Assembly (NCBI RefSeq): GCF_017348835.2
Contig: NZ_CP071375.1
Length of the DNA stretch: 64,000 nt
Source of the DNA: Escherichia coli
GTDB taxonomy: Bacteria > Pseudomonadota > Gammaproteobacteria > Enterobacterales > Enterobacteriaceae
Direction: 5' to 3' (one strand)
Below, in pieces: positions 1-3,000 of this stretch (its first letter is position 1; each line of letters begins with the position of its first letter). Position numbers: made by a program.

Positions 1-3000
1 ATGCCGGTGCCTTACGGTGAAATGCTGGTTGGCTCACGGCGAATCTCCCAGGACATCAGTACCCGTGATGAAGGCGGTGACGGGAAGGTGGTGGTTATCG
101 GGCGGCAGGCATAAAAGCGAAAAAATCCCGCAGTGACCGAAGGCTGCGGGAACAGAAAATGAAGATTAACCACAGGGAGTTTTGTTTTTATTGGCCCGAA
201 AAAACTGTAACGCCCGGGAATGATATCTGCCACGGGGGCGTACAGAAAATGTGAAGAAATTCAGAAATTTTATTCCGTCATGACACAGGCACCCTCCGGG
301 GTGCCTGTCGTTTTTGGGGCATAAACAGATTCAGACATCAGACAGGAGAGGGGGACAGAGTGGGTAAAGGTGGCGGCAAGGCGCACACGCCGGTTGAGGC
401 AAAGGACAATCTTAAGTCCACGCAGATGATGAGCGTGATTGATGCCATCGGTGAGGGACCGGTGGAAGGTCCGGTGAAGGGGCTGCAGAGTATTCTGGTG
501 AACAAAACCCCGCTGACGGACACGGACGGTAATCCTGTGATACATGGTGTGACAGCGGTCTGGCGCGCCGGGGAGCAGGAGCAGACACCGCCGGAAGGTT
601 TTGAGTCATCCGGCTCTGAAACCGCACTGGGCGTGGAAGTGACGAAGGCAAAGCCGGTGACGCGCACCATTACGTCCGCGAACATTGACCGCCTGCGGGT
701 TACCTTCGGGGTGCAGTCACTGGTGCAGACCACCTCACAGGGTGACCGTAACCCGGCATCCGTCCGCCTGCTGATTCAGCTGCAGCGTAACGGTAACTGG
801 GTGACGGAAAAGGATGTCACCATTAACGGCAAGACCACCTCACAGTTCCTCGCTTCGGTGATTCTGGATAATCTGCCTCCCCGCCCCTTTAACATCCGGA
901 TGGTCAGGGAGACGGCGGACAGCACCACGGACCAGCTGCAGAATAAGACGCTGTGGTCGTCATACACCGAAATCATCGATGTGAAACAGTGCTACCCGAA
1001 CACGGCGATTGTGGGGCTGCAGGTGGATGCGGAGCAGTTTGGCGGTCAGCAGATGACGGTGAACTACCATATCCGCGGTCGCATCATCCAGGTACCGTCA
1101 AACTATGACCCGGAAAAACGCACGTACAGCGGCATCTGGGACGGCAGCCTGAAACCGGCATACAGCAACAACCCGGCCTGGTGCCTGTGGGACATGCTGA
1201 CTCACCCGCGCTACGGCATGGGAAAACGTCTGGGGGCGGCAGACGTGGACAAGTGGGCGCTGTATGCCATTGCGCAGTACTGCGACCAGACGGTGCCGGA
1301 TGGTTTCGGGGGGACCGAGCCGCGGATGACCTTTAATGCGTACCTGTCACAACAGCGTAAGGCATGGGATGTGCTCAGTGATTTCTGCTCGGCGATGCGC
1401 TGTATGCCGGTATGGAACGGCCAGACGCTGACGTTCGTTCAGGACCGCCCGTCGGATGTGGTGTGGCCGTACACCAACAGCGATGTGGTGGTGGATGATA
1501 ACGGCGTGGGGTTCCGCTACAGCTTCAGCGCCCTGAAGGACCGCCACACGGCGGTGGAGGTGAATTACACCGACCCGCAGAACGGCTGGCAGACCTCCAC
1601 GGAACTGGTGGAAGACCCGGAAGCCATACTGCGCTACGGGCGCAACCTGCTGAAGATGGATGCGTTCGGCTGCACCAGTCGCGGTCAGGCCCACCGTGCC
1701 GGGCTGTGGGTGATAAAGACCGGACTGCTGGAAACGCAGACGGTGGATTTCACGCTCGGGTCACAGGGGCTGCGTCACACACCCGGTGACATTATTGAAA
1801 TCTGTGATAACGACTATGCCGGGACCATGACCGGCGGACGTATCCTGTCCATCGATGCCGCCAGCCGCACCCTGACACTGGACCGTGAGGTGACCCTGCC
1901 GGAGACAGGTGCCGCCACGGTGAACCTGATTAACGGCAGCGGTAAGCCGGTGAGCGTGGCCATCACTGCACACCCCGCGCCGGACCGGATACAGGTCAGC
2001 ACCCTGCCTGATGGTGTGGAGACATACGGTGTATGGGGACTCTCCCTGCCGTCACTGCGTCGTCGCCTGTTCCGCTGTGTCTCCATCCGGGAAAACACGG
2101 ACGGCACCTTTGCCATCACGGCGGTGCAGCACGTACCGGAAAAAGAAGCCATCGTGGATAACGGGGCCAGCTTTGAGCCGCAGTCAGGCACCCTGAACAG
2201 CGTTATTCCACCGGCAGTGCAGCACCTGACGGTGGAGGTGAGCGCCGCTGACGGCCAGTATCTGGCACAGGCGAAATGGGACACGCCGCGGGTGGTGAAG
2301 GGCGTGCGCTTCAGTCTGCGCCTGACCAGTGGAAGCGGTCAGGACAGCCGTCTGGTGACCACCGCCATCACCGCGGATACAGAGCACCGTTTCAGCGGTC
2401 TGCCGCCGGGGGAATACACCCTGACGGTCAGGGCAATTAACAGTTATGGCCAGCAGGGCGAACCGGCCACCACCACGTTCAGGATTAATGCACCTGCGGT
2501 ACCCGCCACGATTGAGCTGACACCGGGCTATTTTCAGATAACAGCGGTCCCGCGTCTTGCGGTGTATGACCCGACGGTACAGTTTGAGTTCTGGTTTTCG
2601 GAGACAAAAATCGCAGACATATCTCAGGTGGAAACCTCTGCCCGTTATCTGGGGACCGGCAGTCAGTGGAGTGTATCCGGCCCGCACATTAAGCCTGGGA
2701 AGGATTTCTGGTTTTACGTGCGCAGCGTCAACCTGGTGGGGAAATCTGCTTTTGTGGAAGCCAGTGGCCGGGCCAGCAATGATGCAGAAGGGTATCTGGG
2801 GCTGTTTCGGGAAAAAATAGGAAAACTGCATCTGGCTCAGGGGCTGTGGGAGCTGATAGACAACAGCCAGCTTGCGGATGAGATGGCGGAGATGAAGACC
2901 TCCATCACCGAAACCCGCAATGAAATCACACAGACGGTCAGTAAAACGCTGGAGGACCAGAGCGCCACCATACAGCAGATACAGCGCGTGCAGAAGGACA

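Follow-up and report, generated by a model that had tools for sequence, protein, structure and literature searches.

A predicted pre-J terminator and an antisense gene for an sRNA of the PasB / EcOnc22-24 family in the I-J spacer of an Escherichia coli prophage

Why should a hairpin of the transcription terminator type stand within a late tail operon, just ahead of the gene for the tail tip? The question is raised by one end of a 64,000-nucleotide stretch of Escherichia coli DNA (the window; contig NZ_CP071375.1 of assembly GCF_017348835.2). On its plus strand the window opens with the 3' end of the tail assembly gene I (positions 1-114, partial, stop codon TAA at 112-114), a stretch that is found in identical form, and annotated 'tail assembly protein', in O26:H11 11368, in Sp11, Sp14 and Sp15 of Sakai, in E2348/69 and in several phages. 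Gene J (360-3836, plus strand) encodes a tail tip attachment or host specificity protein of 1158 amino acids with matches to the Pfam families FNIII-A_GpJ, Ig_J, Phage-tail_3 and Ig_GpJ_C (E values from 1e-38 to 1e-42). An upstream extension of J was rejected, position 360 being the first start after an in-frame stop. The two genes are separated by 245 nt, and it is in this spacer that the hairpin lies.

The hairpin, which we call hairpin A, occupies positions 285-315. An inverted-repeat scan found arms of 10 nt (285-294 and 299-308) that are 100% complementary around a 4-nt loop, TCCG, and directly 3' of the stem is CGTTTTT at 309-315, the T-run ending 44 nt upstream of the J start codon, GTG at 360. 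The perfect 10-bp stem and T-run of the original prediction are thereby confirmed, and its placing of the element on the J-sense strand, as a terminator type, is borne out by the sequence, the scans and the fold. In the terminator scan it is a plus-strand site of 10 pairs, including 7 G-C; the stem-loop has an energy of -18.9 kcal/mol, and the plus-strand RNA from 266 to 320 folds at -26.5 kcal/mol (z = -4.75), a stability reached by 0 of 200 shuffled sequences. In the minus-strand reading no T-run adjoins the stem. Hairpin A combines the features by which an intrinsic terminator is recognised, namely a G+C-rich stem, a short loop, a U-tract and covariation; the U-tract is short (5 U) and is offset by 2 nt from the stem. 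Terminator-like sites are no more numerous in positions 1-20000 than expected by chance (20 found, 19.7 expected), and hairpin A is among the three best of them. The best plus-strand sites in this region all lie at gene junctions, with strong ones also at the junctions of J with lom and of lom with the tail fibre gene.

Homologues of hairpin A preserve both its pairing and its polarity. In their alignment 98.9% of cells are paired, compared with 33-49% in slid controls. One pair position reads CG in 12 sequences, UA in 5 and UG in 2, which amounts to a single compensatory change, seen among close relatives retrieved with a pattern that left little of the stem free to vary. Three positions vary by G.U only, and in minus-strand RNA these pairs would turn into A.C mismatches. 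Every homologue retains at least 4 T in the T-run. The pairing, the wobbles and the kept T residues suggest that hairpin A is under selection as plus-strand RNA. When I-J spacers were collected by an anchoring motif and the presence of J downstream, a G+C-rich hairpin with a T-rich tail was found ahead of J in all 130; it is hairpin A in 92 of these and an unrelated 13-bp hairpin, in the same slot, in the other 38. PPompW_699 exemplifies this replacement of hairpin A by a non-homologous pre-J terminator.

Upstream of the stem lies a conserved linker, TATTCCGTCATGAC (271-284, plus strand), which goes with hairpin A in the alignment and falls outside the sRNA cassette described below; the Klebsiella phage KpLi5 has a similar GTTTTATTCAGT upstream of its own pre-J hairpin. 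Some spacers carry two or three sRNA cassettes in tandem, and in these hairpin A is single and adjoins J: homology between the cassettes stops at ...AAATTTT, and the linker and hairpin A follow only the last of them. Because tandem cassettes share one copy next to J, linker and hairpin A are not part of the cassette. Hairpin A is a conserved plus-strand terminator, by prediction from these data, and is a separate entity from the sRNA.

The cassette itself contains a gene on the opposite strand. Covariance modelling and homology place it at 119-213 on the minus strand, in antisense orientation to the tail genes. For the model, R1, we used 25 further I-J cassettes and left out the variant in the window; R1 matches 213->119 over its full length (positions 1-94 of 94) with 68 bits and an E value of 4.8e-12. 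Over about 80 nt the window sRNA is 75% identical to PasB of enteropathogenic E. coli (EPEC), and it is 72% identical to the copy in Sakai Sp15. We assign it, on this homology, to the known family of Hfq-dependent prophage sRNAs that includes PasB and EcOnc22-24; the extent given by the model would make it about 95 nt long, and expression, Hfq binding and stabilisation by Hfq are published for homologues only. A conserved open reading frame filling the gap had been named in advance as the finding that would count against the hairpin's proposed role: a conserved gene is indeed present, but it is an sRNA gene on the other strand and not a reading frame. The second hairpin of the original prediction, at 127-150, is likewise real, but it is not an element of the same kind as hairpin A, being the intrinsic terminator of the sRNA itself (120-151, minus strand). 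It has a stem of 8 bp (126-133 with 144-151) and a 10-nt loop in the inverted-repeat scan and coincides with the paired element of model R1. No T-run follows it on the plus strand, whereas on the minus strand it is followed by ATTTTTTCGCTTTT, with TTTTTT at 125->120. The stem covaries between cassettes (CCCGCAG/CTGCGGG in some, CCCACAG/CTGTGGG in others), and the published 3' end of PasB is the equivalent U-run.

The start of the sRNA can be placed with less precision. Its 5' end would be at 213 according to the model and the position of the -10 hexamer, or at about 198 according to homology with the 83-nt PasB. The putative -10 hexamer, TATCAT at 220-225 on the minus strand, aligns with AATAAT in Sakai, with TATAAT in E2348/69 and PhiR12_2, and with GATAAT and TAATAAT in other cassettes. 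In E2348/69 and PhiR12_2 the promoter reads TTCACA, a 16-nt spacer and TATAAT; in the window variant the -35 is poor, and a consensus promoter scan of window positions 1-1000 returned none. Upstream of the promoter is a box, GAAAATGTGAAGAAATTCAGAAATTT (245-270), that hardly varies between cassettes which differ in other respects and occurs once per cassette in tandem spacers. Within it, at 250-265, is a CRP-like core, TGTGA-N6-TCAGA, with one mismatch to the consensus TGTGA-N6-TCACA; its centre is about 41-45 nt from the inferred sRNA start. With 2.3 such matches expected by chance in the window, the core motif is no rarer than chance and does not identify a CRP site by itself; the box is a putative CRP site, and we treat it as a lead only.

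Two sRNA descriptions, from different pathotypes, converge on this position. PasB of EPEC E2348/69 is an Hfq-dependent RNA of 83 nt with 37 RIL-seq partners (Pearl Mizrahi et al. 2021, PMC8550237) and is also treated in a 2026 preprint by Zhu, Shabalina and Storz. Its coordinates and Northern probe fall at the homologous place in E2348/69, and it shares with the window copy the I-J slot, the antisense orientation, the stem CCCGCAG/CTGCGGG with its U-run, and the central block AACUCC..UUAAUCUUCAU; the window copy is a different sequence variant, with another terminator loop and another 5' part. EcOnc22, EcOnc23 and EcOnc24 were detected as Hfq crosslinking peaks in enterohaemorrhagic E. coli (EHEC) O157:H7 Sakai (Tree et al. 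2014, PMC4104026, Table S2), with a Northern band of about 85 nt that is destabilised without hfq. They are antisense to J and lie in the I-J spacers of Sp15, Sp14 and Sp11, where the hairpin A stem and loop are identical to those of the window and the sRNA body is 72% identical. Taken literally, the coordinates of Table S2 would make EcOnc22 antisense to hairpin A, an arrangement that is ruled out by the offset between genome versions: positions in NC_002695.1 must be shifted by about +133 (+133 to +142) for version 2, as checked on AgvB, AsxR, a copy of HnrS and StxS/tR', and after this correction all three peaks map to the homologous place.

Other prophage sRNAs were considered and set aside. 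AgvB, AsxR, HnrS (EcOnc10-12), PasA, PasC, PasD and StxS resemble the present family in that they bind Hfq, are prophage-borne and often multicopy and have intrinsic terminators, but they belong to the PR'/lysis region and not to the I-J junction: AgvB and AsxR sit at the PR' moron site, HnrS between endopeptidase and DNase genes, and PasA, PasC and PasD in a lysis/esterase context. Rfam, searched with window positions 1-1000 at E values up to 1, gave no relevant family and one chance snoRNA match, and the same procedure recovered the positive controls AgvB, AsxR and STnc100 in Sakai loci. The literature on sRNAs at the junction of tail assembly and host specificity genes yielded only the PasB and EcOnc22-24 work, which draws no link between the two and does not mention hairpin A.

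How did the spacer come by this content? BLAST matches to several phage groups end at query position 202, which is window position 316, right after the T-run, and others start at about 245. The mosaic joint that had been suggested for the spacer is real and lies at 316/317, where the sRNA/terminator module gives way to alternative J leaders, which differ downstream of it (GGGGCATAAACAGATTCAGAC... in some, GTGCGTAACAGTTATCAC... in others). The leader in the window (317-359, plus strand) has a Shine-Dalgarno-like AGGAGAGGGGGA at 344-355 and is conserved in the copies of Sakai and O26. The moron concept is said to come from Juhala et al. 2000 and Cumby et al. 2012. Judged by the definition in PMC3594210, the spacer has two marks of a moron: it is extra DNA between adjacent genes (245 nt, compared with 60 nt in lambda and 0 nt in phi1026b, eiAU-183 and Smarc2, where I and J overlap), and its G+C content of 0.48 is unlike that of its flanks (0.59 at the end of I, 0.58 in J). 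A third mark, transcription of the repressed prophage from a promoter and to a terminator of its own, would be provided by the sRNA terminator and a putative promoter, expression in the lysogen being reported for the PasB and EcOnc22 homologues.

Comparison with other phages indicates that a hairpin ahead of J is common without being universal. A scan for related loci with a J alignment yielded close relatives only, and the comparison covers about 10 hand-picked lineages. Among these, a hairpin with a T-run was found just before J in lambda, HK97, Klebsiella phage KpLi5 and Serratia phage LittleDog, and the overlap of I and J leaves no place for one in phi1026b, eiAU-183 and Smarc2. The belief that lambda has no gap between I and J is mistaken: the last base of I is 15444 and the first of J is 15505, and in the 60-nt gap (15445-15504), 22-42 nt upstream of the ATG of J, stands a J-sense, G+C-rich hairpin (AAACCGCC-TGCG-GGCGGTTT) that ends in a T-rich tail. 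Ahead of it is TGTTTTATGTGAAACC, reminiscent of the window linker TTTTATTC(C/A)GT. The lambda spacer differs in having no sRNA cassette, and its hairpin has a weaker stem (-11.3 kcal/mol) and an interrupted T-run and is unannotated; homology with hairpin A is not demonstrable. A parallel at the same junction and in architecture is HK97 (AF069529; Juhala et al. 2000), where an insert in reverse orientation, equipped with a minus-strand terminator of its own, is followed by a plus-strand terminator a few bases before J. The latter (AGCCACC-TTTG-GGTGGCT and T6) is annotated 'terminator putative' after gp22, a 'moron', and gp23, a 'reverse moron'. The cargo of HK97 is protein-coding, unlike that of the window, and the sequences are unrelated; in addition, the forward moron gene 22 is an obvious client of the plus-strand terminator, and none is evident in the window. 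With a hairpin in the lambda gap, and a terminator, a moron and a reverse moron in that of HK97, the spacer is not the unexpected feature of a late tail operon that it was taken for. A strong terminator within such an operon is normal architecture for a moron site and no anomaly.

Taken together, these observations lead us to favour, at a probability of roughly 0.55, the reading of the I-J spacer as a 'reverse moron' slot: an sRNA gene that arrived between I and an ancestral pre-J terminator, the latter blocking unmodified polymerase and being read through under Q. The pre-J module would be the older element, frequent in lambda-like tail operons, and one or more sRNA cassettes would have entered between it and the stop codon of I. 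The PasB-type sRNA would be transcribed from its own minus-strand promoter toward gene I and stop at the hairpin at 126-151 with its U-run, which would keep antisense transcription out of the tail-assembly genes. Hairpin A would act in the other direction, as a Rho-independent terminator of rightward, J-sense transcription. In the lysogen it would halt polymerase that lacks Q modification before J, lom and the downstream cargo; such polymerase might have started at upstream promoters, whether spurious or belonging to morons, or in the sRNA promoter region by divergent firing. In lambda, RNA polymerase modified by Q passes terminators. During lytic growth, Q-modified polymerase from PR' would likewise be expected to read through hairpin A. 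Insulation of J and the genes beyond it in the lysogen is the most economical reading of the sequence data, although its client transcripts are conjectural: sequence scans gave no convincing plus-strand promoter in or just upstream of the spacer. In an EPEC lysogen expression is low both in J (base mean 15) and in gene I upstream (4.8), with no step-down visible at the terminator.

Hairpin A might instead supply the 3' end and Hfq module of a second, J-sense sRNA, processed from the 3'-UTR of I or begun at an upstream start. By spanning 120-213, this RNA might pair in cis with the PasB-like sRNA, as its antisense partner or as a sponge. The 3' end has the look of a canonical Hfq-binding module, with a U-rich AAAUUUUAUUC, a stable hairpin and a U-tail; paired sRNAs of this sort (AgvB/EcOnc06, AsxR/EcOnc27) are known in EHEC prophages (PMC7873438), and Tree et al. 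dropped Hfq peaks 100 bp or less from a sense coding sequence, a filter that would have removed a J-sense RNA. We nevertheless think it rather unlikely. The U-tail has only 5 U, tandem cassettes have one hairpin A in common, and the pre-J hairpins of lambda, HK97, KpLi5 and LittleDog occur without a PasB-like cassette; among the listed EPEC RIL-seq entries none names the I/J flanks, compared with at least 88 mentions of PasB, a weak argument. Sequence scans gave no plausible plus-strand promoter between the conserved box and hairpin A from which a short RNA ending at the hairpin could start. A role for hairpin A in the late mRNA, as a 3' barrier for the I message or a 5' structure of the J message, would draw on the very stable stem (-18.9 kcal/mol) and on its place between two cistrons that overlap or are coupled in translation in other phages; since terminators should not stop Q-modified polymerase, a role at the RNA level is the only one that would remain in lytic growth. 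A hairpin that serves stability alone would not need a T-run, yet all variants keep one, as does the unrelated hairpin that takes their place, and we regard a stability or processing element in place of a terminator as distinctly unlikely, the two roles not being exclusive.

The exact mosaic boundary, and the close relatedness of the copies, which makes their conservation partly a matter of recent common descent, would also suit a relic or recombination scar of a past moron that now hitch-hikes without function. This is improbable in view of changes that are compensatory or wobble-only and restricted to the plus strand, of an unrelated terminator in the same slot of another lineage, and of analogous hairpins in distant phages. 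That the gap encodes a small plus-strand protein, with hairpin A as its terminator, we consider very improbable. The window has a 31-codon reading frame at 159-254 (ATG at 159, MKIN...), PhiR12_5 has a 32-codon counterpart recorded as a hypothetical protein, and the frame in the Sakai variant ends right before the hairpin. Length, frame and C-terminus vary among variants (22, 31, 32 and 38 codons), however, the Stx2c_JNE and JLK-2012 types begin the frame with ACG, there is no Pfam match, and the conserved ATGAAGATTAA block fits the core of the validated minus-strand sRNA equally well. A protein gene in the gap was rejected on this lack of conservation of the reading frames across variants.

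The 'reverse moron' reading leaves most of the locus ordinary and explained, and the sRNA family has been described already. Hairpin A would matter only if it were shown to shape the expression of J, lom or effector genes in lysogens or to make an RNA that interacts with the sRNA. A bolder proposal, which we rate as a long shot, is that the I-J junction of EHEC and EPEC lambdoid prophages is a slot for exchangeable, stackable sRNA cassettes driven from one conserved, possibly CRP-responsive box, and that the pre-J terminator, beyond insulating, yields an Hfq-binding, J-sense RNA with perfect antisense complementarity to the cassette sRNA. If so, low-level or induced late transcription would titrate or destroy PasB-type sRNAs and couple the induction state of the prophage to the sRNA network of its host. 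The apparently empty gap of about 250 bp ahead of J holds a class of virulence-associated sRNAs that is unannotated in RefSeq and in phage records, and PasB and EcOnc22-24, which were named separately in EPEC and EHEC, form one family in position and sequence. The family is far more diverse and more often multicopy than a strict BLAST survey implies: PasB was mostly single-copy in the published survey, whereas, of 5426 complete E. coli genomes, 828 have spacers of the PasB/EcOnc type, with a median of 5 such sites in each of these, and the I-J cassettes comprise at least 60 sequence variants, with several terminator types and with up to three cassettes in tandem.

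The terminator-like hairpin upstream of J (hairpin A) is real, and known biology accounts for most of it: it is a probable terminator at a moron site, where an extra gene is inserted between phage genes, and its neighbour belongs to an sRNA family that has already been published. Both of the hairpins in the original prediction lie within the 245 nt that separate the end of the tail assembly gene (I; 3' end at window 1-114 on the + strand, its homologues annotated as lambda-I-like tail assembly protein) from J, which starts with a GTG at 360 on the + strand and encodes 1158 aa with Pfam tip-attachment protein J domains. 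Hairpin A lies on the + strand and its arms at 285-294 and 299-308 form 10 fully complementary base pairs, seven of them G-C, with a TCCG loop and a CGTTTTT tail. The RNA fold of 266-320 (+) scores -26.5 kcal/mol (z = -4.75), a value that none of 200 shuffles equalled. The perfect 10-bp stem and T-run that had been described there are confirmed. The U-tract is short. The idea that this hairpin marks a mosaic joint was also borne out, because BLAST matches to several phage groups stop at window 316, just past its T-run, and the J leaders downstream of that point vary among phage groups.

The second hairpin (hairpin B) had been placed at 127-150, and it exists, with arms at 126-133 and 144-151; what had been missed is its polarity, since the stem is followed by a T-run on the minus strand only (ATTTTTTCGCTTTT). 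A covariance model built from 25 other I-J cassettes (the sRNA units inside such spacers), with the window variant excluded, matches the window at full length from 213 to 119 on the minus strand (68 bits, E 4.8e-12). The sRNA of the window is 75% identical to PasB of EPEC E2348/69 and 72% identical to the copy in EHEC Sakai. This match and these identities assign the leftmost 100 nt of the spacer to a known sRNA family, with hairpin B as the predicted terminator. The spacer matches 135 phage records, mainly of Stx-converting phages, and, among 5426 complete E. coli genomes, 828, with a median of five places per positive genome; no annotation was found under it in the matched phage records or E. 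coli genomes, and no Rfam family matches within it. The best-conserved core of the sRNA across cassettes, at window 158-181, reads AACUCCCUGUGGUUAAUCUUCAU on the minus strand (AACUCC..UUAAUCUUCAU) and holds an anti-Shine-Dalgarno-like CUCC(U/C)U, a candidate seed; its + strand mimics a small ATG-led ORF that is annotated as a hypothetical protein in some phage records.

Hfq-crosslinking peaks EcOnc22, EcOnc23 and EcOnc24 have been reported in prophages Sp15, Sp14 and Sp11 of Sakai (Tree et al. 2014, Table S2, PMC4104026); they lie on the + strand of the chromosome, appear on Northern blots as a band of ~85 nt and lose stability when hfq is absent (PMC4104026). Table S2 uses the coordinates of an older genome version, and its offset to the current Sakai record was measured with four independent anchors: AgvB and AsxR, located by Rfam, put it at ~+142 (1.27 and 1.94 Mb), an identical HnrS copy at +133 (2.23 Mb) and the StxS/tR' region at +133 (2.93 Mb). 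The peaks fall in I-J spacers of the current record, where I and J are both on the minus strand, and for every offset between +128 and +142 all three cover UUUGAUGCCUGAAAAAUAACUCCAUAACGUUAAUCUUCAUCGUUCUCUCCCGCAGCUCCGC on the strand antisense to J, directly 5' of hairpin B and extending into it. A zero offset, with the peaks on the antisense of hairpin A, is excluded by the four anchors. PasB is an 83-nt sRNA encoded at 1466343-1466261 on the minus strand of E2348/69, between E2348C_1436 and E2348C_1437 (PMC8550237), which are the tail assembly protein gene and J, both on the + strand. In the spacer between these genes, the Northern probe published for PasB (AATCCCGCAGTGATCGCGGAGCT) corresponds to hairpin B read in the J sense; in an hfq mutant PasB is down by 6.8 log2 units, and it has 37 RIL-seq partners (PMC8550237). 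PasB gives independent support for an sRNA in the I-J spacer. From position and sequence we propose that PasB and EcOnc22-24 are equivalent, which is modestly new; the published accounts of these sRNAs examined for such a connection do not make it.

A -10-like hexamer occupies a fixed place on the minus strand across cassettes (TATCAT in the window, AATAAT in Sakai and TATAAT in E2348/69), and in the E2348/69 type TTCACA stands ahead of TATAAT with a spacing of 16 nt. Upstream of the hexamer is a promoter box, GAAAATGTGAAGAAATTCAGAAATTTT (window 245-270), the best-conserved stretch of the spacer, which is common to cassettes with unlike sRNA bodies and terminators and is present once per cassette in tandem arrays. 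It includes a CRP-like core, TGTGA-N6-TCAGA, a half-palindrome that alone is no rarer than chance. PasB has been reported to be more abundant in LB than in DMEM, which would fit CRP activation or catabolite control, a lead and not a result. The shared box, the diversity of the cassettes and their tandem arrays at the I-J slot are modestly new. Other cassette types are found in the same slot, with CCCACAG..CTGTGGG (loci L021, L095 and L121) or TCTCCCGT..ACGGGAGA (L058 and L122), and differ in minus-strand terminator and sRNA body; the L058/L122 type may belong to a separate sRNA family that has nothing but the promoter box and the pre-J terminator in common with the rest.

Across 19 distinct homologues of hairpin A the stem is paired in 98.9% of cells, and sliding the partner columns as a control gave pairing of only 33-49%. 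One pair is C-G in 12 of these sequences, U-A in five and U-G in two, G.U is tolerated at three stem positions, and an additional variant (GCAGGCACUC/GGGUGCCUGU) has one more U.G; the covariation is thin. In an RNA copied from the other direction, on the minus strand, these wobbles would turn into A.C mismatches, so the structure has been kept on the J-sense strand. At least four T's follow the stem in every variant. When spacers were surveyed by anchoring on the promoter box and not on hairpin A, a G+C-rich hairpin with a T-rich tail was present ahead of J in all 130 spacers followed by J: hairpin A in 92, and an unrelated 13-bp hairpin (AAACCCCGGTATC-TGCT-GATACCGGGGTTT, then CTCTTT) in 38. 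Where a spacer holds two or three cassettes, every one of them has its own minus-strand terminator and promoter box, while the linker ATTCCGTCATGAC and hairpin A are single, behind the last cassette and adjoining J. Hairpin A is thus independent of the sRNA cassette, and the pre-J terminator is probably an independently selected J-sense element, for which this evidence is modestly new. Loci with tandem cassettes and a single hairpin A include L077 (~9950-10190), L111, L128, L058 (8303-8833) and L175 (7424-7621).

Lambda had been said to have no gap between I and J, which is wrong: its I gene stops at 15444, its J gene begins at 15505, and the gap contains AAACCGCC-TGCG-GGCGGTTT and then TGTCATTT, 22-42 nt ahead of the J ATG. 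The closest precedent is HK97. Its record lists a 'moron product' (gp22), a 'reverse moron product' (gp23) accompanied by a putative terminator on the minus strand and, ending 12 nt ahead of J, a + strand feature at 15107-15129 labelled 'terminator, putative'. Serratia phage LittleDog and Klebsiella phage KpLi5 have a hairpin with T6-7 directly ahead of J, and GTTTTATTCAGT of KpLi5 (L359 268-329) is common with the window linker. The sequences leading into the pre-J hairpin are alike in KpLi5 (GTTTTATTCAGT), lambda (TGTTTTATGTGAAACC, L017 346-405) and the window (TTTTATTCCGT), a likeness among distant phages that hints at an old pre-J module. Not every phage has such a hairpin: the I and J genes of phi1026b, eiAU-183 and Smarc2 overlap. 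The spacer has two of the hallmarks by which morons are defined (PMC3594210), namely extra DNA and a deviant G+C content, 0.48 versus 0.58-0.59. In the phage 2851 records FM180578 and NC_049943 the annotation of vhsJ (J) overlaps the spacer, and its start looks over-extended.

The best-supported picture has three parts, in which an sRNA cassette would sit in reverse orientation in the classical moron slot, bounded towards I by its own terminator and towards J by a J-sense terminator that was there before it, hairpin A. Anatomy, polarity, conservation and family assignment come directly from the comparisons; termination by hairpin A, its clients and Q read-through are what we infer. In the lysogen, hairpin A would stop unmodified polymerase ahead of J, lom and the cargo, and polymerase modified by the late antiterminator Q would read through it. 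Read-through of terminators by Q-modified polymerase is established lambda biology. A promoter scan and sequence comparison of the spacer found no + strand promoter needing hairpin A as a stop; this, the short U-tract and the thin covariation are the chief weak points of the picture. Possibly hairpin A ends a J-sense RNA that binds Hfq and is antisense to the sRNA of the cassette, but hairpin A-like elements occur without cassettes and such an RNA left no sign among the entries listed in the RIL-seq tables. A role purely in mRNA stability is conceivable for hairpin A, although the conserved T-run is then unexplained, and its replacement by an unrelated terminator in the same slot speaks against the relic that it could also be. 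It could also terminate a small protein gene, yet the ORFs of the spacer are not conserved, the ATG being ACG in two types.

Beyond the probable moron-site terminator ahead of J, strong terminator-like hairpins with T-runs are seen on the + strand at 3855-3874, directly past J (GGGCACCTCAGGAGGTGCCT+TTTTTATT), and at 4555-4576, past the Ail/Lom gene (AGCCCGCCGGTTCAGGCGGGCT+TTTTTGTGGG), whose Lom identity was confirmed by Pfam. Together with the hairpin at 285-315, these place a predicted + strand terminator at each of the I|J, J|lom and lom|tail-fibre junctions. Gathering-level Rfam matches to C0299 sRNA and the ALIL pseudoknot (an IS3-family frameshift element) are found at 46204-46282 (+) and 56935-57051 (+), and chromosomal backbone or IS, not prophage tail region, probably makes up the right part of the window.
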